Translations under genes and position numbers: made by a program | DNA from: a virus | Taxonomy: Duplodnaviria > Heunggongvirae > Uroviricota > Caudoviricetes | Virus record (IMG/VR): IMGVR_UViG_2695420687_000004 | Location: 1 to 7,023 of that record | Length of the DNA: 7,023 nt | Reading direction: 5' to 3' (one strand) | Notes under the pieces: model-generated | Seen by the model: the letters and a program-made list of their open reading frames with translations, nothing else | The model's database searches: none | What the model was told of the DNA's origin: nothing | Part shown: positions 1 through 7,023 of the stretch, one piece after another | Layout: each line of letters begins with the position of its first letter | Numbering within the stretch: position 1 is the first letter of the stretch

Positions 1-312
1 GGCGAGCAAACTGCAGCAGATAATCCGCGACCATATCGGAGCAAAGCACTGCCGCCCCGCTGACGCCAAATCAAGTTTTGCCTGGTCAGCGATGGCATCC
101 AGCGAACGGGCCAGCGTGCCGGACTCACCCGCTTTACCGCTGGCAGTCAGCACATCAGTGATCAGCACGGGTTTATTAAGAGGAAACATTTTTGCATCGG
201 CATCATCGCCCGTGCAGACCATGCCCACGATGGCGGTGCTCACCGTGGTAATGGATCGGGTGCCTTCGTTGATTTCAACAACGCGCACCCCGTGGTGGTA
301 ATCCTGAGCCAT
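1..312 (-). CDS. FI: tail sheath protein (P2 FI-like), N-terminal 104 codons; gene continues beyond the left window edge
   Basis: ATG at 312..310 with SD AGGAGG 9 nt upstream on the minus strand (complement of 322..327). Translation [54 protein letters not shown]... matches my recollection of P2-family contractile sheath N-termini and the expected position after G and the Z/fun slot. No stop before position 1. Not in the ORF track because it is open-ended. The last ~25 codons (plus 1..75) look atypical (see findings). Confidence 0.6.
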
Positions 313-388
313 AGCGGCGAACCTCCTGATTGGATTAGGCTTCGCCCTATGTTGAAGTGATTGTGCCCGACAAACAGCTAAGTGTAGT

Positions 389-406
389 TGTACCGTTATT
401 CACACA
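389..406 (-). promoter_or_regulatory. candidate Ogr/Delta-type late-promoter activator site (TGT-N12-ACA dyad) upstream of the sheath gene
   Basis: TGTACCGTTATTCACACA at 389..406 is a TGT-N12-ACA dyad centred ~86 bp upstream of the FI start codon. If centred at about -55, as in P2 late promoters, the transcript would start near 342 and leave a ~30-nt leader. Caveat: this 6-fixed-base motif is expected ~1.7 times by chance in 7 kb, so position is the main support. Confidence 0.35.
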
Positions 407-454
407 AAATGACGGTATTTGTCTGCTTTCAGGGATAATCAAAATAAAGCTGAT

Positions 455-1021
455 TCAGGGAGATTCATTGCTCTTATTTGCCGGAAATTTTCGATAAATG
501 GTAGAAACGCCTACATCAAAAATCAGTGCAATACGCTGTCTTGATTCTCCGGCCTTGAGTAAACGCCCAATCTGTGCCCACTGTTCGCTGGTCAACTTAG
601 GACGGCGTCCACCTACTCTGCCTTTGGCACGAGCTGCAGCCAGCCCTGCCCTGGTACGTTCAACTATCAGTTCGCGTTCCATTTCAGCCAGGGCACCCAT
701 GACATGAAAAAAGAAACGGCCCATTGGGGTACTGGTATCAATACTGTCAGTCAGACTTCGGAAATTCACGCCGCGCTGGCGCAACTCTTCTATCAGCGTA
801 ACAAGATGCCGCATACTGCGTCCCAACCTGTCCAGCTTCCAGACAACCAGCGTGTCTCCTGCCGATAGTGTCCTGAGTAGTTTTTTCAGCCCCGGTCTGT
901 CGGACTTAGTGCCACTGATTTTGTCCTCAAAAATCCGCTCACATCCCGCGCAGTTCAGTGCATTACGTTGCAAATCGGTGTTCTGGTCATTTGTTGACAC
1001 GCGTACATAGCCAATAAGCAT
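455..1021 (-). CDS. site-specific serine DNA invertase, Gin/Pin/Cin/Hin family (188 aa)
   Basis: From ATG 1021..1019 (SD AGGGGA, 6-nt spacer): MLIGYVRVSTNDQNTDLQRNAL... with the catalytic-serine motif YVRVST, VVWKLDRLGRS, FRSLTDSIDTSTPMGRFFFHVMGALAEMERE and a C-terminal HTH region (GRRPKLT...STIYRKF), the hallmark of phage DNA invertases. Length 188 aa fits the family (~185-195 aa). The ORF-track start at 1138 adds 39 codons that read through the crossover-site region and is rejected. Confidence 0.93.
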   Translation of the reverse strand: MLIGYVRVSTNDQNTDLQRNALNCAGCERIFEDKISGTKSDRPGLKKLLRTLSAGDTLVVWKLDRLGRSMRHLVTLIEELRQRGVNFRSLTDSIDTSTPMGRFFFHVMGALAEMERELIVERTRAGLAAARAKGRVGGRRPKLTSEQWAQIGRLLKAGESRQRIALIFDVGVSTIYRKFPANKSNESP

Positions 1022-1076
1022 GATCAATCCCCTGAATAAAAACCGGGGATGATGCCAGTTAGCCATTATCTCTGCA

Positions 1077-1102
1077 TTTTCATAAACGTTGGTTTGGGAG
1101 AA
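1077..1102. other. inversion crossover site, left (hix/gix/cix/pix-like 26-bp site: 12-bp half-sites around a 2-bp core)
   Basis: TTTTCATAAACG-TT-GGTTTGGGAGAA. The AAAC..GTTT-type imperfect dyad around a 2-bp core matches the architecture of Hin/Gin/Cin sites (for example hixL TTCTTGAAAACCAAGGTTTTTGATAA, from memory). The inner half-site plus 9 further bp (1089..1111) is a perfect inverted copy of 2451..2473. The site lies 56 bp upstream of the invertase start codon. Confidence 0.75.
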
Positions 1103-1483
1103 GCGGCAAAACGGAATATCGGTGCTGGAGCCAATCAAGTCCCCGACATGTCCTTTTTTACATCAGCAAAGGGTGATAACGGATACTTTTCCTTACCGGA
1201 CGGCACTATTGTGCAATATGGAAAAGCCACAACGATAAGAAATAATGAAATTAGCCTGGTAACTTTGCCATTTTCCTTTCCCACAAAGTTCTCTCAGGTA
1301 CTGATAACCCATGATGATGCCGCAACTACAAATGCAGTTGCTTTTGGCGCCGCCACTCCAAAAACTGTTTCAACATTTCAGGTTGTCGTGCAGAAACTAG
1401 ATTTTAATACCGCCACTGGAGCTGTCACATTACGAACCACTGCTTCACCGTGCTACTTCCGTTATATCGCAATCGGGAGCTAA
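1091..1483 (+). CDS. alternative tail-fibre C-terminal (receptor-binding) cassette H'v, promoterless in this orientation; after inversion it would fuse in frame to codon 350 of H
   Basis: Plus-strand frame of ORF 1049..1483. From 1091 it encodes GLGEAAK (identical to H residues 351-357, same DNA in inverted orientation) followed by 123 different residues (RNIGAGANQVPDMSFF...CYFRYIAIGS) and a stop at 1481..1483. Frame continuity across the core TT/AA dinucleotide was verified by hand. The ORF-track start at 1049 lies outside the segment and is not used. Confidence 0.7.
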   Translation, partial: GLGEAAKRNIGAGANQVPDMSFFTSAKGDNGYFSLPDGTIVQYGKATTIRNNEISLVTLPFSFPTKFSQVLITHDDAATTNAVAFGAATPKTVSTFQVVVQKLDFNTATGAVTLRTTASPCYFRYIAIGS

Positions 1484-1487
1484 TTTT

Positions 1488-1712
1488 ATGCAAAACAAAT
1501 ACAGTCCATCTATGAATACGTTCTTTATGGCTGAATTTATGCGTCGTTACGAACAAGCTGGTACATTGCCTGATGATGCAATAGAGATACCCGATGAAGT
1601 ATTTAAAGAATACACAGGGGAACCACCGGACGGAATGATGAGGGTTGCGGGTAGTGATGGTCTACCCGCATGGGCAGAAATTATTTACACTCAGGAACCA
1701 TCGGCCAGATGA
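1488..1712 (+). CDS. truncated paralogue of the tail-fibre assembly chaperone (G'/Tfa', 74 aa), partner of the H'v cassette; possibly a pseudogene
   Basis: SD GGGAG 8 nt upstream of ATG 1488, 4 bp after the H'v stop. The product (..YSPSMNTFF..YEQAGTLPDD..GEPPDGMMRVAGSDGLPAWAEI..) aligns with the N-terminal half of G (..FSPAENAFY..YLTAGTWPSD..GEAPEGKVRSIGDDGLPCWVDL..) but stops where G continues for ~75 more residues. Its 3' end overlaps the 3' end of G convergently (1681..1712). Confidence 0.5.
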   Translation: MQNKYSPSMNTFFMAEFMRRYEQAGTLPDDAIEIPDEVFKEYTGEPPDGMMRVAGSDGLPAWAEIIYTQEPSAR

Positions 1713-2118
1713 TATCAGGAGCACTGGAGGTATCAATCAGTTCCAGTGCGTCCAGATAATCCAGCCACAGATTATATTGCGCCAGTTCCTCACCTTTCAG
1801 ACGCCCGATTGCTGCTTTGCCGGGCCACTGCTTGCTATTCATATAATCGTTGGCCTGGTCAATTCTCGACTGCTTTTCTGAGTCAGCCACTGCAAGTTGT
1901 TCTTCATGCGTAGGTGGCGGAAGATCTACCCAGCAAGGCAACCCATCATCACCAATGCTCCGCACTTTACCTTCGGGAGCTTCTCCCATGAAAACCAGCG
2001 CATCGGCAGCATTTATATTGATGCCGTCTGACGGCCATGTGCCAGCAGTTAAATAATCATCTTGTAGTGCTACAAGATAAAAAGCATTTTCAGCCGGGCT
2101 GAATACATAGTCGACCAT
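1681..2118 (-). CDS. G: tail fibre assembly chaperone (P2 gpG / Tfa family), 145 aa
   Basis: ATG 2118..2116 overlaps the H stop (TAATG). N-terminus MVDYVFSPAENAFY and C-terminal ..APDIIWPMVPECK resemble the Tfa-family N-terminal YFS..N.FY and C-terminal DIEWP..P motifs (recollection). The ORF-track start at 2136 is an alternative 6-codon-longer start. Confidence 0.8.
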   Translation of the reverse strand: MVDYVFSPAENAFYLVALQDDYLTAGTWPSDGININAADALVFMGEAPEGKVRSIGDDGLPCWVDLPPPTHEEQLAVADSEKQSRIDQANDYMNSKQWPGKAAIGRLKGEELAQYNLWLDYLDALELIDTSSAPDIIWPMVPECK

Positions 2119-3521
2119 TAATATCCCACTCCCCATACTGCCACTGTTGAATTAGATTTCGTATATGCGCAAGCGGCTTTGAATTTGACCCGGTCAACAA
2201 TCGCTGCGCTAACAAAAGGAGCTCCATTAGTCGCGTAGATCACAGAATTGACCAGCGAAGGATTGATGGAAAGGCAAGCATTAGGAAAGGCAACCGGCCA
2301 TGAGTCATCAACAACGACCATATTACCGTCGGTAGATTGCGGCACTGATACCATCTTCCACTGAAGCAGTGCTGTTCGTTGTACTCCACCAATTAATACT
2401 GGAATAGTGATGTTACCTGCACTGCTGGCCAATGCTGTTGCAGCAGGCATTTTTGCCGCTTCTCCCAAACCAAGGTATGTGAGAAGACCAGCTACATCCT
2501 TTCCACTCAAATTAGTCAGCGTATTGTCCAGCGGTTGTTTACCTGCCAGTGCATTAAGCATTGTCGTGGCAAAGTTCGGGTCATTCCCCAGCGCCGCCGC
2601 CAGTTCGTTCAGTGTATCCAGTGCCGCAGGTGCAGAACCCACCATTGCCGCAATCGCCGATTTCACAAAAGCCGTAGTGGCAATCTGTGTATTGTTGACC
2701 GACTGCGCCGCCGTGGGGGCTGTTGGCGTTCCGGTGAGTGCCGGACTCGACAGTGGCGCTTTCAGTGCCAGCGCATTGTTAATGGTGGTACTGAATTTCG
2801 GATCATTGTTAATGGCTACGGCTATTTCTTTCAGCGTGTCCAGCGTGGCTGGAGCACCATTAATAAGAGCCGTCAGTGCCGCCTGAACAAACGCGGTGGT
2901 CGCAACCTGCGTGGTGTTATTCCCCGCCGCTGGCGTTGGCGCTTTGGGGGTTCCGGTAAACGTCGGACTTTCTTTGGGTGCATACTGTGAATGCGGGTCC
3001 GGTGCGGCAAGATGTTTTGCCATCAGGTCATCCACGTACACCTTCAGCTCCAGTGCCTTGTCATCCACATACTTGCGGGTTGCCAGCACTACGGCAGGGT
3101 CGATTTTCAGTGTGATATTGTCCGTGCTGCTGGTAATCAACACCATACGCACGGTCTGGGTACGCCCGCTGCCTTCAGCCAGTTGCGGCTTATAGCTTTC
3201 CGGGCAGTTGCCCACGGCAATCAATGCCCCGGACTCATCAAACAGGCCCACTTCACGTATCCACCAACCGCCCTCGTTTTCAGGGATCACCTGTTCAGCA
3301 ATAATCTGGCTGCTGTTCTGCGGGTCGATATAGAGCATATTCAGCGCAGCCCGGCGTTTCTCATTTACTAATGCTGTCTGCTTTGCGTTCGGCGTTGGCA
3401 ATGTTCCGCCGCCATCGCCGACCGCCATATGGGTAATTTTTAAAGGCACACCGAGCGCGGCGGCGCTGGCAAGTTTCTCCGCGCCAATATCCGTCAGCAG
3501 GGTATAAAATTTTGTGCTCAT
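2118..3521 (-). CDS. H: tail fibre protein (P2 gpH-like), 467 aa; constant N-terminal 350 residues plus invertible C-terminal receptor-binding tip
   Basis: ATG 3521..3519 overlaps the I stop (ATGA); SD-like GAGAG 7 nt upstream. N-terminus MSTKFYTLL..GAEKLA..MAVGDGGG..YKPQLAEGSGR and collar repeats (..NNTQIATTAFV.., ..LDTLNELAAALGNDPNFATTMLNALAGKQPL) are characteristic of P2 H / Mu S-type fibres as I recall them. The crossover core falls between codons 350 and 351. Confidence 0.9.
   Translation of the reverse strand: MSTKFYTLLTDIGAEKLASAAALGVPLKITHMAVGDGGGTLPTPNAKQTALVNEKRRAALNMLYIDPQNSSQIIAEQVIPENEGGWWIREVGLFDESGALIAVGNCPESYKPQLAEGSGRTQTVRMVLITSSTDNITLKIDPAVVLATRKYVDDKALELKVYVDDLMAKHLAAPDPHSQYAPKESPTFTGTPKAPTPAAGNNTTQVATTAFVQAALTALINGAPATLDTLKEIAVAINNDPKFSTTINNALALKAPLSSPALTGTPTAPTAAQSVNNTQIATTAFVKSAIAAMVGSAPAALDTLNELAAALGNDPNFATTMLNALAGKQPLDNTLTNLSGKDVAGLLTYLGLGEAAKMPAATALASSAGNITIPVLIGGVQRTALLQWKMVSVPQSTDGNMVVVDDSWPVAFPNACLSINPSLVNSVIYATNGAPFVSAAIVDRVKFKAACAYTKSNSTVAVWGVGY
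2460..2485. other. inversion crossover site, right (hix/gix/cix/pix-like), inside the tail-fibre gene
   Basis: TTCTCCCAAACC-AA-GGTATGTGAGAA on the plus strand; the two half-sites are 10/12 dyad-symmetric. The inner half-site is identical to the inner half-site of the left site in inverted orientation, with the same 2-bp core. Confidence 0.75.
2529..2960 (-). repeat. diverged tandem duplication (two ~215-bp units) inside the constant part of the fibre gene
   Basis: H residues ~188-257 (TFTGTPKAPTPAAGNNTTQVATTAFVQAALTALINGAPATLDTLKEIAVAINNDPKFSTTINNALALKAPL) and ~261-331 (ALTGTPTAPTAAQSVNNTQIATTAFVKSAIAAMVGSAPAALDTLNELAAALGNDPNFATTMLNALAGKQPL) are about 60% identical. The DNA units are visibly similar, for example ttcagtgtatccagtgccgcaggtgcag vs ttcagcgtgtccagcgtggctggagcac. 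Coordinates approximate. Confidence 0.6.
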
Positions 3522-4123
3522 GGATTCACTCTCATTGTGTCAATAACATGGACCGCCCCGCCTTCATGCGCGGTGCCGCCAGAAATAATTGTTTCGTTGA
3601 TATACGGATAGATCGTGATTTCTTCGCCAAGATAGCTGGCGGCTCCCACCCAATGCGGGCCGCTGGTCTGCAGGTTGATGGACATGCCGATCATGTGACG
3701 GCTACATGGTTTGGCATCGCTTATCAGTCGCTCAAGTTCCAGATAGGTATCTTCAGTGATGCCCTGGTCCTGCACGCCGATATCCAGGCGAAACGTGCCC
3801 GGTGTCTCTCCGGTCTGCCACCACTCAATAATGCGGATCAGAAAGCCGAACGGCTCCACCACCCGCCGCACGGCACTGGTGGTCCCTTTATGCTGATGAA
3901 TATAAAAAGCATCCTTCACCACCTGGCGCTTGACGCTTTCTGTCCAGCCCTCGTCCCAGCGATCCACAGAGAACGCCCAGGCGAGATAAGGCAGGAAACT
4001 GACCGGACAGGTTGCCGGATTCCACAAGTCACGCAGCGGCACCTGCAGATCAGTAATCCCGCTGCAGGTTTGCGCCAGTCGGCGCTCCAGTGAAGTTGAA
4101 CCCGGTGGCAGCAGACTATTCAT
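3518..4123 (-). CDS. I: baseplate protein (P2 gpI-like), 201 aa
   Basis: ATG 4123..4121 with SD GGAGG 5 nt upstream; start overlaps the J stop by 8 bp. Motif LWNPATCP..LPYLAWAFSVDRWDE and the position between J and H match the P2 gpI family (recollection plus synteny). Confidence 0.8.
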   Translation of the reverse strand: MNSLLPPGSTSLERRLAQTCSGITDLQVPLRDLWNPATCPVSFLPYLAWAFSVDRWDEGWTESVKRQVVKDAFYIHQHKGTTSAVRRVVEPFGFLIRIIEWWQTGETPGTFRLDIGVQDQGITEDTYLELERLISDAKPCSRHMIGMSINLQTSGPHWVGAASYLGEEITIYPYINETIISGGTAHEGGAVHVIDTMRVNP

Positions 4124-5024
4124 CCGTTCCTCCGTTGGTTACGTGCCACTGCGTACATGATGCCGCCTGTGTTTTGTTCAGGACCACATCCGCCAGAGGA
4201 GAAGCCAGCTCCACACGCTGCACACCCTCAACATGCAGGGCGGCAAAGATGGCGCTACGGCGAATATCCCGACCAAGACGCGTCTGACTGGCGATGTACT
4301 TCTGCAGGCTGACTTTTGCCGCTGCCATTACCGGCTCTGCTTCCGGTCCCGGATAAAGAAAAATGGTGGCTTCCACTCGGTACGGGATGATTTCTGCGCT
4401 GCGAACCGTCAGACGGTTAGCCACCGGGCGGACGTTCTCACTGTTCAGGGCGTTCTCCACCACATCCAGCAAGTCTTTTTCTGCTGTTCCGTCGCCTTCG
4501 CGGCTAAGGACAGTCAGCACCACCTCTGCAGGTGCCGGACTGGTTGCACTGGCATCCGCCACCCGACCGTCGGCGCTTCGTGCATGAAACTCATAAGCGG
4601 CAGTTGGCCCCGCAACAGAAAGCCCTTCAAAGGCTGCAGGCACACGCAGGCGTAATGCTTCATCACTTTCCATCACAGCCGCAACGGGCGGTACAGCGTC
4701 ATCATCAGCAGGTGTCACCGTCAGGCGTTTCACGTTGTAGTTAGCAGCGAGCTGGTCAAGATCGCCGCCCATCGCGTAAGCCACCATCACCGCCTGCGCG
4801 GCTTCGTTAATGCGCTGGCGCAGAAGCAACTCACGATAAGCGTTCTCCTGCAACAATTTGGTAACAGGTTCAGATTCCAGTTCCAGCGTGCGGATCACAG
4901 CTTCCTGCTCATCTTTCGGATGAAGCGCCACAAATTCTGCCTTGCGTTCGGCAAGCAGCGTCTCAAAGTCCGGCACATCCACAATCTGCGGCGCAGGCAA
5001 CTGCGAAAGGTCAATCACTGCCAT
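4116..5024 (-). CDS. J: baseplate protein (P2 gpJ-like), 302 aa
   Basis: ATG 5024..5022 with SD GGAG and 6-nt spacer; N-terminus MAVIDLSQLPAPQIVDVPDFETLLAERKAEF is typical of gpJ-family baseplate proteins. The ORF-track start at 5063 is a 13-codon extension without an SD and would overlap W more deeply. Confidence 0.85.
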   Translation of the reverse strand: MAVIDLSQLPAPQIVDVPDFETLLAERKAEFVALHPKDEQEAVIRTLELESEPVTKLLQENAYRELLLRQRINEAAQAVMVAYAMGGDLDQLAANYNVKRLTVTPADDDAVPPVAAVMESDEALRLRVPAAFEGLSVAGPTAAYEFHARSADGRVADASATSPAPAEVVLTVLSREGDGTAEKDLLDVVENALNSENVRPVANRLTVRSAEIIPYRVEATIFLYPGPEAEPVMAAAKVSLQKYIASQTRLGRDIRRSAIFAALHVEGVQRVELASPLADVVLNKTQAASCTQWHVTNGGTDE

Positions 5025-5370
5025 TCTCTGCTCCTGTTGATACGGAAAGGGAAACAGGCACACCGTTATTACGCCGCCCGGTCAGCGCCACCACCATTGA
5101 ACCGTCAAAATGGCTGTTGATGGTGATGGAATCCAGCGTCAGCCGTGGCTCCCAGCGACTCAGCGCCACATACACTGCCGACATGACCTGCAGGCGTAAC
5201 GCCGGATTTTGTGGCTGGTCTATCAGTGCCGACAGCAGGGAACCATATTCACGGCGAGCAATGCGGCTACCCTGCGGCGTCAGCAGAATGTCCCGCACCG
5301 ACTGGCGCAGATGGTCAATATCAGTAATGGCTTTACCGCTGGTATTGTTCATCCCGCTATAAAGCGTCAT
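5011..5370 (-). CDS. W: baseplate wedge protein (P2 gpW / GPW-gp25 family), 119 aa
   Basis: ATG 5370..5368 overlaps the V stop (ATGA); SD GGAGG with 6-nt spacer. Size and position between V and J fit gpW. Confidence 0.85.
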   Translation of the reverse strand: MTLYSGMNNTSGKAITDIDHLRQSVRDILLTPQGSRIARREYGSLLSALIDQPQNPALRLQVMSAVYVALSRWEPRLTLDSITINSHFDGSMVVALTGRRNNGVPVSLSVSTGAENGSD

Positions 5371-5945
5371 ACCGGGCCTCCAGTTGTGTCGCCGCCTTTC
5401 AGGACGCCAGTATGCTGATGCGCATCAACCTCGATCCCGTTAGAACTCATCGCTCCGCCGCCCTGGGTAACGCCACCATTGATCACCACTTCGCTGTTAA
5501 TGCGCGTGCGGTCAGCCTCCAGTACAAACTCACTGGTTTTCATGGTGATGTTGTCAGCGGCCTCAATGACCATTGATTTGATGCCCCTGACATACCAGCG
5601 CCCGGTGGCGGGTTCGTATTCAAACCAGCTACCGTCAGGATGTTCTGTCACGCAGGCGTCCGCCGACGTCGACGGTGGTGCGAACTGATTCGAATAGACA
5701 GCGGGCAGCGCAAAGGCGGTCTCCAGATTGCCGCCCAGACTCAGCAGCACCACCTGCTCACCTTCCGATGGTTTCCACCATGTCCGGGCATTACCCGCGC
5801 GCAGCGTCAGCCAGTTAATCCAGTTGGTTTCAAGGTCGCCCGTTTTCACCCGGCAAAGCCAGTTTTCCCGGTCCACTTCGGTGACTACACCTATGCGGAT
5901 CAGATTGGTGATAAGGCGCATGATTTCGGTTAGTTGTGCGTTCAT
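5367..5945 (-). CDS. V: baseplate spike / assembly protein (P2 gpV-like), 192 aa from ATG 5945 (alternative start 5921)
   Basis: MNAQLTEIMRLITNLIRIGVVTEVDRENWLCRVKTGD...TWWKPSEGEQVV..LGGNLETAFALP.. with a Gly-rich C-terminus, typical of gpV-type spike proteins. The start is chosen at the sharp composition boundary near 5946; neither 5945 nor 5921 has a clear SD. The ORF-track extension to 6188 runs antisense through the AT-rich island and the 5' end of the membrane-protein gene and is rejected. Confidence 0.8.
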   Translation of the reverse strand: MNAQLTEIMRLITNLIRIGVVTEVDRENWLCRVKTGDLETNWINWLTLRAGNARTWWKPSEGEQVVLLSLGGNLETAFALPAVYSNQFAPPSTSADACVTEHPDGSWFEYEPATGRWYVRGIKSMVIEAADNITMKTSEFVLEADRTRINSEVVINGGVTQGGGAMSSNGIEVDAHQHTGVLKGGDTTGGPV

Positions 5946-5991
5946 AGATATATGATGACAGCTGAAAACTTGTTTATAACTTCTTGCAAAT

Positions 5992-6009
5992 TGTGGTATC
6001 GATGGTACA
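5992..6009 (-). promoter_or_regulatory. possible late-promoter activator dyad (TGT-N12-ACA) for the V-W-J-I-H-G operon
   Basis: TGTGGTATCGATGGTACA at 5992..6009, in the intergenic region upstream of V. It is centred only ~55 bp from the 5945 start codon, so it fits well only if the transcript starts very close to the ATG or if V starts at 5921. The motif is expected by chance about once or twice per 7 kb. Confidence 0.25.
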
Positions 6010-6048
6010 AATTGATAAAAGGATAAAAAACAACCAATAGGTGGATAA

Positions 6049-6855
6049 ATGAGTGTTATGAATCCAATAAGTTCTAATATATTTAATGCTGAATTTTTAA
6101 ACACCCCGGCAGCGGCACTTGCCGCATGGATTTCCATTATTGGAGCTGTTATAACTTTGGTGACGATAGTTATAAGAGCACTATTCAAATATAGAAAATC
6201 TCATGATGTAATTTTGAAAAAATCAGGAATACCTGCGTTTATATTAAATTTTTTTCTTATACGAATATCATTAAAAAGGCTGCCTACTATCACATGGGCT
6301 GAAAAATCAATCACGGTTCTCTTTTCACTTCTTTTTTTGTATGCAATTTATATTTTTGGTCCAGTTTTCATCCAAGCCATTAGAACCCCACCAAATAGCA
6401 CATTGCTTTATTGGATAAAGTCCGGTGAATCATTTTATATGTCAAAAAAACTGGCGACTGCAGCTACAATATTAACCACTCCTGATTGGGAAATATCAAA
6501 GGATGATTGCGAAGAGTCATCCTCTGCCAGTACAGAGAAGTACAAATCATTAACTATCGAACATAAAGAAATTCTTTGTAAACTACTAACCACTGATGAA
6601 GGGAATGCTTACATTGATGAAGAAGTCAAGAATTTCGTTAAAGACAAATTCTTTATCTATTCCTTTGCCCCAACAACCATATTTATTCTATTATGGATTT
6701 CTTTGGGTTTTATACTGACCATTCACTATTCTAAAAAAGTTAGGAAATATATTCTGACTGAACAAAAAAATGCAATTCATTGGGCATATGGTGAATTCAA
6801 GACAGAAGGAATCTATTCAATATATCAAGAGTTAGAACGTAAGACTCACCATTAA
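6049..6855 (+). CDS. hypothetical multi-pass membrane protein (268 aa) encoded by an AT-rich moron; function unknown
   Basis: ATG 6049 preceded by AGGTGG (6039..6044, 4-nt spacer); possible sigma70-like elements TTGCAA (5984..5989) and TACAAA (6006..6011). Clearly lower GC than the flanking structural genes (by eye, roughly 30% vs 55%). Hydrophobic segments at about residues 21-45, 60-74, 87-110 and 199-224, with positively charged loops (KYRKSH, KKVRK) and an acidic soluble region at ~115-198 (..[34 protein letters not shown]..). It is the only long ORF in the island and lies opposite to the late operon. Confidence 0.75.
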
Positions 6856-7023
6856 GACCCAACAAACGACGCTCTGCGTAACGCACTTCCGCCACGAAGG
6901 AAGACTCCAGCACGCCAGCACGATGACCGCCAGTTGCGGCCGCCCACGCTTTAGCGATCGCCATTCCTTCGCCTTTCGGATCGTTTTCCGGGTGAACGGC
7001 AATCAGCGTCGGTACACCGAATC
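6797..7023 (-). CDS. 3' end of a phage late gene in the P2 gene-S position (probable tail completion / virion morphogenesis protein); gene starts beyond the right window edge
   Basis: Open minus-strand frame entering at 7021 (..[56 protein letters not shown]..), GC-rich like the other structural genes, stopping at TGA 6799..6797 inside the AT-rich island. Identity is inferred from synteny only; I do not recognise the sequence. Confidence 0.4.

Follow-up and report, generated by a model that had tools for sequence, protein, structure and literature searches.

A DUF6216-family membrane protein gene as exchangeable cargo between the S and V genes of P2-like prophages, with a possible role in superinfection exclusion

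Introduction

What does a lone AT-rich gene do between the tail genes S and V of a P2-like prophage, and how did it get there? The question is raised by a stretch of viral DNA of 7,023 nucleotides (IMG/VR record IMGVR_UViG_2695420687_000004, positions 1 to 7,023), which is called the window below and is part of a P2-like prophage with its phage genes on the minus strand. Between V and S, the window carries an AT-rich island with one gene, the cargo gene, which encodes a 268-aa membrane protein. The comparison with related phages supports the island as horizontally exchanged, non-essential cargo in the S-V slot, the position of orf30 in P2. The gene is almost certainly a cargo gene of the DUF6216 family, and it is the last survivor of decayed P2 prophages in several genera. 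For the role of the protein, superinfection exclusion at the inner membrane is put forward tentatively and weighed against the other explanations. A preliminary description of this DNA, made from its letters alone, had suggested foreign cargo with a possible defence or exclusion function.

Composition and borders of the island

The GC content is 0.31-0.36 in every 200-nt interval of 5901-6800 and 0.54-0.62 on both sides. By segment, it is 0.31 at 5946-6012, 0.28 at 6013-6048, 0.33 at 6049-6796, 0.32 at 6797-6855, and 0.58 at 6856-6891. In a megablast comparison with 50,697 phage records, homology to the sister phages stops at 5947, in the first base pairs of V. In alignments with empty-slot relatives, the match picks up again at about 6846-6869, inside S. 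The compositional edges thus coincide with the homology breakpoints, which confirms the island. The abrupt change of composition that the preliminary description had placed at about 5946 and 6856 falls at these same points, with a GC content of about 32% inside versus 55-60% in the flanks. The island and its parts are the following.

5367-5945, minus strand: gene V for the baseplate spike, bounding the slot on the left (annotated in RefSeq at matching loci; Pfam Phage_base_V)
5946-6856, no strand: AT-rich exchangeable module, from the V start codon to the conserved RRLLG codons of S (GC and homology breaks)
5984-6011, plus strand: candidate sigma-70 promoter of the cargo gene with an extended -10, overlapping the Ogr box (inferred from conservation)
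5992-6009, minus strand: TGT-N12-ACA late-activator (Ogr-type) box of the V operon (pattern; centre 55.5 bp upstream of the V ATG at 5945)
6039-6044, plus strand: Shine-Dalgarno sequence AGGTGG, 4 nt before the ATG (direct reading; GGAG/GGTG is kept at this position in orthologues)
6049 (ATG)-6855 (stop), plus strand: cargo gene, 268 aa, predicted DUF6216-family inner-membrane protein (ORF, Pfam, hydropathy, AlphaFold)
6797-6855, no strand: convergent overlap of 59 bp between the cargo gene and S (RefSeq annotation of identical loci)

The cargo gene lies on the strand opposite to V and S and converges on S, so that the single gene with its own Shine-Dalgarno sequence, read against the late operon, stands as first described. 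No flanking direct repeats were found around the island, and there is thus no sign of transposition. A search for Rfam RNAs in the window found none.

The S-V slot in related phages

The slot was surveyed in 80 IMG/VR loci, chosen for a V protein with 96% identity or more to that of the window, and both S and V were located in 77 of them. In 54 of the 77 relatives the slot is empty, with 68 bp from the stop codon of S to the start codon of V. The other 23 contain at least 14 kinds of cargo of 0.6-2.3 kb, all with a GC content of 0.31-0.36. Nearly all of these cargos consist of a single gene on the strand opposite to S and V; some have two genes. Among the phages in GenBank, Klebsiella phage 4LV2017 and Escherichia phage 500465-1 have nothing in the slot, Cartapus has a 176-aa protein without assignment there, and P2 has orf30. 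The island therefore shows the marks of a P2-type cargo (moron), namely presence/absence polymorphism, alternative cargos, and foreign composition. The slot comparison that the preliminary description had called for confirms that the cargo varies among relatives, and agrees with its reading of the island as non-essential foreign cargo.

The 268-aa protein itself is present in 6 of the surveyed slots, and the slot of locus L065 has a 231-aa protein of the same family (about 25% identical, E 6e-29). Several of the other occupants are recognised by PADLOC as known or candidate anti-phage proteins. The slot of phage vB_EcoM-813R9 has AriA and AriB, which constitute PARIS, while further slots hold a SIR2 protein resembling ThsA/LmuA, an ApeA-like protein, and the candidates PDC-S15 and PDC-S31. 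The slot of L076 contains a similar, putative pair of 418 aa and 285 aa. Several further occupants are unassigned, among them three membrane proteins (146, 250 and 314 aa). In its content, the S-V slot thus behaves as a further defence-rich hotspot of P2-like phages, in line with the earlier expectation that anti-phage genes are common in P2-like cargo slots. The sister-phage slots with alternative cargo are the following.

L014, 2847-4950; L076; L042; L079; L034; L062

Extent of the exchanged module

The island is not cargo throughout. The V operon has its P2-type late promoter in the first part, 5946-6012, which belongs to the functions of the phage backbone. The Ogr-type box is centred 54.5-57.5 bp upstream of V in all 77 relatives regardless of the cargo, and in the P2 record the annotated activator site of pV lies at the same 55.5-bp distance, with transcription starting at the V ATG. 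At the other end, 6797-6855 is read on both strands: the plus strand contains the last 19 codons and the stop of the cargo gene, and the minus strand the stop and the last 18 codons of S. S is an essential tail-completion gene and pV an essential late promoter. The description of the island as AT-rich from end to end is correct, but its extent is not all cargo, with the late promoter of V at 5946-6012 and the end of S at 6797-6855.

Beyond the conserved RRLLG, the last ~18 residues of S differ with the type of cargo, each type having a version of its own (S genes of L028-L107). Since each cargo comes with its own S tail and with the pV promoter, the exchanged module extends from within S as far as the start codon of V. 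Shorter, more distant members of the family lack the C-terminal 20 residues that overlap S in the 268-aa subfamily.

The candidate promoter of the cargo gene consists of a -35 TTGCAA (5984-5989), a 16-nt spacer, and an extended -10 TGgTACAAA (6003-6011). This block is preserved upstream of orthologues with a protein identity of only 50-75%, and across orthologues the coding sequence is far less conserved than the 100 nt upstream of the cargo gene. The promoter-like block is also retained in the remnants and orphans L020, L026 and L112, where V and the TGT half-site are lost. In Franconibacter the upstream block is TTGCTA...TGaTAAAAA, which is read as functionally equivalent. A strict sigma-70 consensus scan found no promoter upstream of the cargo gene, and a terminator scan found no terminator. 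The promoter is accordingly proposed because the block is conserved in orthologues and orphans, and not from the consensus scan. The strand of the gene and this promoter-like block suggest that it may be expressed in the lysogen and possibly occluded when Ogr binds.

The DUF6216 protein

The protein matches the Pfam model PF19723 (DUF6216) with 44.6 bits against a gathering cut-off of 27.3 (E 1.5e-11). The alignment is partial and covers residues 73-237 of the protein and positions 115-265 of the 270 in the profile, so the match does not extend over the full length. The N-terminal third deviates from the PF19723 pattern and is subfamily-specific. RefSeq names the gene 'DUF6216 family protein', including the copy in E. 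coli B. DUF6216 is described as a 'family of unknown function', and the name therefore gives no functional information. The profile search proposed in the preliminary description thus returned DUF6216, and the statement that the protein has no known family was wrong in a narrow sense, as the protein belongs to DUF6216.

Membrane topology: Hydropathy indicates three strong hydrophobic segments, at about residues 24-42, 90-108 and 207-225, where four had been counted. The fourth, 61-75, is short, contains Arg72, and has clusters of K/R on both sides; AlphaFold gives only a short helix there, and it is more likely an interfacial helix than a membrane-spanning one. The N-terminal 19 residues have no K or R, and the stretches 47-60, 76-88 and 227-235 are rich in these residues. 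By the positive-inside rule, this charge pattern predicts that the N-terminus is outside, the C-terminus inside, and the domain of residues 111-200 in the periplasm. The protein is most likely composed of three membrane helices in an N-out/C-in orientation with an acidic alpha/beta domain of ~90 residues in the periplasm. As this domain is the largest soluble part, the main soluble portion is predicted to lie outside the cytoplasm. The acidic soluble region (12 K/R versus 16 D/E in residues 111-200) and the charged C-terminal tail had been noted correctly before.

Predicted structure: The AlphaFold model has a mean pLDDT of 76, with 84-94 across residues 83-246. It contains, in order, the second membrane helix, four short beta strands, the helix of C154, the helix of C177, and a 64-residue helix that includes the third membrane segment. 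Among 37 family representatives, which are 15-58% identical to the query, C154 and C177 are the only invariant columns, and W147 and F129 are nearly invariant. The two cysteines are the only ones in the 268-aa protein and are both located within residues 111-200. They probably form a disulfide in the putative periplasmic domain.

Family: A profile search through all of 1.84 billion cluster representatives yielded no more than 49 at E <=1e-3. Those with a name are all from Enterobacterales (Cedecea, Franconibacter, Erwinia, Pectobacterium, Tatumella, Winslowiella, Enterobacter), and the close homologues of 50-94% identity are from Escherichia, Salmonella, Citrobacter, Klebsiella, Serratia and their relatives. 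The DUF6216 model is matched by 35 of the 37 diverse relatives, with a best E of 1e-80. The pairwise dN/dS among orthologues is 0.12-0.33, which means that the gene is under purifying selection. A tblastn search of the cargo protein against the 50,697 phage records gave no match. One further profile hit, P0083, is an actinobacterial-looking repeat protein of 1,199 aa that matches residues 138-192 of the cargo protein six times (E 2e-4). By eye, it shares only a W-x-L-S-D-L-D-C-D-D-like motif inside a Gly/Thr-rich repeat, and it was treated as a chance motif match.

Relationship with P2 Orf30

P2 Orf30 (NP_046770.1) occupies the same slot, and it is probably, though by no means assuredly, a distant relative of the DUF6216 protein, a kinship that the preliminary description had missed. 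Like the cargo gene, orf30 lies between S and V on the strand opposite to both, has a low GC content (~0.34), and encodes a protein of similar length (261 aa versus 268 aa). Both proteins have three hydrophobic segments at comparable positions, and two cysteines between segments 2 and 3, which in Orf30 are invariant among its few homologues. The AlphaFold model of Orf30 (pLDDT 72) has the same order of predicted elements as the model of the cargo protein. The shared order comprises TM1, a cytoplasmic loop, TM2, four beta strands, the helix of the first cysteine, the helix of the second cysteine, and a long helix with TM3. Orf30 differs by a longer cytoplasmic loop and by a cysteine spacing of 17 residues, compared with 23 in the cargo protein.

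At the sequence level, BLASTP of Orf30 against the cargo protein is not significant (E 0.63), Orf30 matches no Pfam model, DUF6216 included, and hhalign with alignments of close homologues is not significant either (E 0.26). With a diverse family profile, hhalign gives a score of 33.0 and an E of 4e-4 at a probability of only 35%, over 67 columns that take in both cysteines and the third membrane segment. Against this score, 120 column shuffles gave 13.1 +/- 2.1 (maximum 22.3), 120 shuffles of 20-column blocks gave 17.0 +/- 2.2 (maximum 25.0), and the reversed alignment gave 14.4. Orf30 is annotated in the P2 record only as 'nonessential', and the link would thus explain ancestry and not mechanism. 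No PADLOC model matched P2 Orf30.

Distribution and survival after prophage decay

The exact 268-aa protein is found in 747 blocks of the assembly collection. In the eight places listed among the matches, the gene is directly beside S, and beside V wherever V persists. The island is present in 109 of 5,426 complete E. coli genomes, including BL21(DE3), REL606 and other B derivatives, and E. coli B, BL21(DE3) and REL606 have a near-identical allele. As a separate observation, the prophage remnant of BL21(DE3) (L001, 15333-17381) has a retron, composed of a St85-family reverse transcriptase and an effector, adjoining the portal gene. With a retron in the classical gpA-gpQ hotspot in addition to the DUF6216 gene, the E. 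coli B remnant has cargo in at least two slots.

Often the prophage has decayed and the gene has not. The E. coli remnants L006 and L011 have the gene intact next to ogr with most tail genes gone. A Klebsiella aerogenes remnant has an IS element upstream of the gene and only a fragment of R downstream, and an Enterobacterales remnant locus has just the gene, CI and an ATPase left. Comparable decay around an intact gene occurs in Serratia rubidaea and Citrobacter youngae. A narrow alignment scan of a one-genome-per-species collection gave seven loci, five of which have no P2 gene within 7 kb. The lone DUF6216 genes are the following.

L109, L112 and L113: about 7001-7800
L111: 5161-5916
L110: similar

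In four loci (Enterobacter sp. JUb54, R. ornithinolytica, C. sedlakii and Franconibacter pulveris) the lone gene stands directly between ybjL and a TetR-family gene. The same two genes flank the remnant P2-like prophage in L011, at a site that is occupied in E. coli B as well. The ybjL-like and DUF6216 genes of R. planticola (L110) are separated by an integrase-like ORF and an unassigned 309-aa ORF. In C. sedlakii, stubs of V and S and the promoter block remain around the orphan and prove that it comes from a prophage. The Enterobacter and Raoultella orphans have a GC content of 0.44-0.48 and no recognisable scars. Orphans are conserved inside genera, at 85% in Raoultella and in several species of Franconibacter. 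Capture of a chromosomal gene by imprecise excision was considered and rejected as the origin of the cargo, since the slot lies mid-prophage and the orphan of C. sedlakii keeps the V and S stubs and promoter block described above.

A distant member of the family in Enterobacter ludwigii (P0076) adjoins an EcoO109I-type restriction-modification pair, and this adjacency is kept in five contigs. A ScoMcrA-like HNH protein (type IV restriction-like), SymE and YjhX are also encoded nearby. IMG/VR scans with three distant family members found no loci.

Possible function of the cargo protein

The function can be inferred from context only. None of the 5,027 defence-protein models of PADLOC-DB 2.0.0 matched the cargo protein at E up to 10. 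The best PHROGs v4 matches are a membrane-protein moron (E 0.16) and a holin (E 0.26), each covering one hydrophobic helix only, and the Pfam model Phage_holin_2_3 stays sub-threshold (14.5 bits against a cut-off of 28.8). NCBIfam and solved-structure searches gave nothing usable. The protein shows no motif for catalysis or nucleotide binding and no cytoplasmic domain, and its island has no partner gene. A holin or antiholin was rejected as a candidate, as the match falls below the threshold, the gene is on the wrong strand, and most siblings lack it. Of the earlier suggestion of a defence or exclusion cargo, the exchanged and non-essential cargo is borne out, but the searches of PADLOC, PHROGs, NCBIfam and solved structures add no match to it.

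The anti-phage genes in the same slot, the defence neighbourhood of the E. ludwigii relative, and the retention of the gene after prophage decay together make envelope-level exclusion the best-supported reading. The cargo gene would be transcribed in the lysogen from its candidate promoter, which overlaps the Ogr box in the divergent late promoter of V, and its product would insert in the inner membrane with three helices and the acidic domain facing the periplasm. There, the periplasmic domain would interfere with the genome delivery of incoming phages at the inner membrane, by acting either on ejection or tape-measure proteins or on an inner-membrane entry factor. Such exclusion would benefit both the host and the prophage, and this would account for the survival of the gene beyond the prophage. 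Some anti-phage role, of whatever kind, is given about even chances here, and the particular proposal of superinfection exclusion, with genome entry blocked at the periplasmic face of the inner membrane, is a tentative one that falls well short of this. The broader proposition, in which DUF6216 and Orf30 constitute one hitherto unrecognised family of single-protein exclusion factors acting at the periplasmic face, seated in an S-V defence hotspot whose cassettes take in the S tail and the late promoter, and repeatedly domesticated as single chromosomal genes in Enterobacterales, E. coli B included, is somewhat unlikely to hold in all its parts.

Several observations weigh against the exclusion reading. 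The protein has no similarity to any characterised exclusion or defence protein in the families searched. T1-T7 have E. coli B, BL21 and REL606 as their classical permissive hosts, and E. coli B, where the P2 Hy dis recombinants arose, also supports the growth of P2. As the B strains carry the gene and are nevertheless permissive, exclusion of those phages at the native level would be neither broad nor strong. In P2 lysogens, old, tin and fun account for the mapped exclusion phenotypes, and none is known to map to orf30. Moreover, the orphans are conserved within genera and are longer-lived than typical defence genes, which a function in the host envelope would fit. P2 hotspots also hold non-defence cargo such as partition systems and toxins (Rousset et al., PMC9122126), and guilt by association in a hotspot is weak evidence.

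These points lead to the alternative that the protein serves host fitness by lysogenic conversion, for example in bacteriocin immunity, envelope-stress tolerance or the modulation of an inner-membrane transporter. The persistence in several genera of single-gene orphans flanked by ybjL and the TetR gene, their raised GC content of 0.44-0.48, their conservation within genera and the purifying selection are all expected from it, as are the lack of defence model matches and the permissiveness of E. coli B to phages despite the gene. The non-defence cargo known in P2 hotspots (PMC9122126) is a further point in its favour. On the other hand, the identifiable neighbours and slot-mates are overwhelmingly anti-phage, the protein has no signature of an enzyme, transporter or immunity protein, and the family is tiny (49 among 1.84 billion) and patchy, unlike a housekeeping envelope factor, so that this explanation is considered unlikely. 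A single-protein abortive-infection effector of the RexB type, which would sense infection and depolarise or permeabilise the inner membrane so that the cell dies before phage release, shares the defence context of the exclusion reading. Its three membrane helices are accompanied by conserved amphipathic juxtamembrane helices (61-75 and 227-246) that could oligomerise, and the first membrane segment weakly resembles HP1-family holins (E 0.037, below the cut-off). However, this holin match is sub-threshold and confined to one helix, the protein has no cytoplasmic sensor domain and the single-gene island no partner gene, and a constitutive pore-former kept for so long as a chromosomal orphan would need a tight control that nothing suggests; such an effector is quite improbable.

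The two remaining explanations have still less in their favour. The location of the gene between late operons and beside lysis and tail genes, with its start ~40 bp from the Ogr box, would suit an accessory of the phage's own lytic cycle, acting in the timing of lysis or in tail or baseplate assembly at the membrane. But the gene is on the strand opposite to both late operons, converges on S and overlaps it, and is replaced by an empty slot in 54 of the 77 close relatives or by unrelated genes in others. It is also kept where all structural and lysis genes are gone, and orf30 of P2 is nonessential, which makes a lytic role very improbable. A neutral passenger or decaying gene with no function would agree with the lack of an assigned function and with DNA that is AT-rich and foreign in composition. 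It is contradicted by the dN/dS of 0.12-0.33, by a reading frame that is intact in many independent contexts, and by the invariant Cys and nearly invariant Trp and Phe positions across the family, and is hardly credible.

Comparison with known systems and significance

T4 Imm, P22 SieA and HK97 gp15 are small inner-membrane proteins of phages or prophages without enzymatic domains, which shield the cell from incoming phage DNA. As proposed for the cargo protein, a membrane anchor would present a periplasmic or interfacial part to the entry machinery. No sequence relationship was detected between the cargo protein and these three, and the length and the three-helix topology differ.

The old/tin (gpA-gpQ) and Z/fun (G-FI) hotspots of P2 resemble the S-V slot in having AT-rich, non-essential, variable cargo between conserved genes, with anti-phage systems among the occupants. 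In contrast to both, the S-V cassette belongs to a different slot, and includes part of the essential tail gene S and the essential pV promoter. A passage of PMC3091744, which cites Nilsson et al. 2004, counts the orf30 region as one of three variable regions in P2-like phages. Studies of defence hotspots cover gpA-gpQ and Z/fun (PMC9122126, PMC9519451), and another hotspot is described that lies between the genes for a tail protein and for the CI repressor (bioRxiv 10.1101/2024.10.15.618418); orf30 is mentioned in none of the three. The library searched contained nothing relevant on the function of DUF6216, on WP_000115390, on ybl42, or on an S-V/orf30 hotspot. Within this literature, the probable link between Orf30 and DUF6216, the defence-rich S-V slot, the structure of the cassette with the S tail and pV, and the domesticated orphan copies appear to be new. 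As the gene is uncharacterised cargo in an exchangeable slot, the finding is classed as prophage hotspot cargo.

If the exclusion reading is true, the gene would provide one-gene immunity at the membrane level, and the searched families of defence proteins, exclusion proteins and solved structures contain no detectable relative. It would also give a first function to P2 orf30, which is listed in the P2 record as a nonessential hypothetical protein. This is easily testable with the near-identical allele in BL21(DE3) and REL606, and with natural empty-slot sister phages as controls. If no phage phenotype is found, the gene is an ordinary moron. Whatever the function, the junctions at which S-V cassettes are swapped lie within S and at the start codon of V, and the survival of the gene in decayed prophages is relevant to the mining of prophage hotspots and to the domestication of prophage genes.

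Other features of the window

The rest of the window contains tail genes and an invertible tail-fibre switch.

to 312, minus strand: sheath gene, first ~80 codons only, cut mid-gene at the left end
389-406, minus strand: second TGT-N12-ACA box, ~85 bp upstream of the sheath ATG (312); the pattern alone is not above chance in the window
455-1021, minus strand: Gin/Cin-type invertase (ORF list)
1077-1111 and 2451-2485: inverted repeats of the tail-fibre switch, 35 nt, which bound alternative fibre-tip and assembly genes
1681-3521, minus strand: tail-fibre genes G/H
3518-4123, minus strand: gene I
4116-5024, minus strand: gene J
5011-5370, minus strand: gene W
6797-6891, minus strand: remnant of S, last 32 codons, fused in frame to an ilvC-like piece (identity to L009 ends at 6891)
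6797-6964, minus strand: S-ilvC fusion ORF

Positions 75-6891 are 99.96% identical to the intact E. coli prophage L009 in one ungapped stretch that ends at 6891. The prophage piece thus ends mid-gene and is followed by ilvC, so that S is reduced here to its last 32 codons. Bases 1-72 are ~90% identical to E. coli bioF and positions 6884-7023 are ~93% identical to E. coli ilvC; neither end is prophage, and bioF and ilvC are two unlinked core genes. The left junction, between bioF and the prophage, has two bases without a match, and the right junction, between S and ilvC, has an 8-bp microhomology, CACTTCCG. These ends may come from natural illegitimate recombination, a chimeric assembly or a constructed sequence.

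The box at 389-406 is probably the Ogr-dependent late promoter of the sheath/tube operon. The invertible tail-fibre switch spans 455-2485, including the Gin/Cin-type invertase. Its segment 1089-2485 is in the opposite orientation in two other loci (a record from L001 and one from L005), and the switch has therefore flipped between close relatives.

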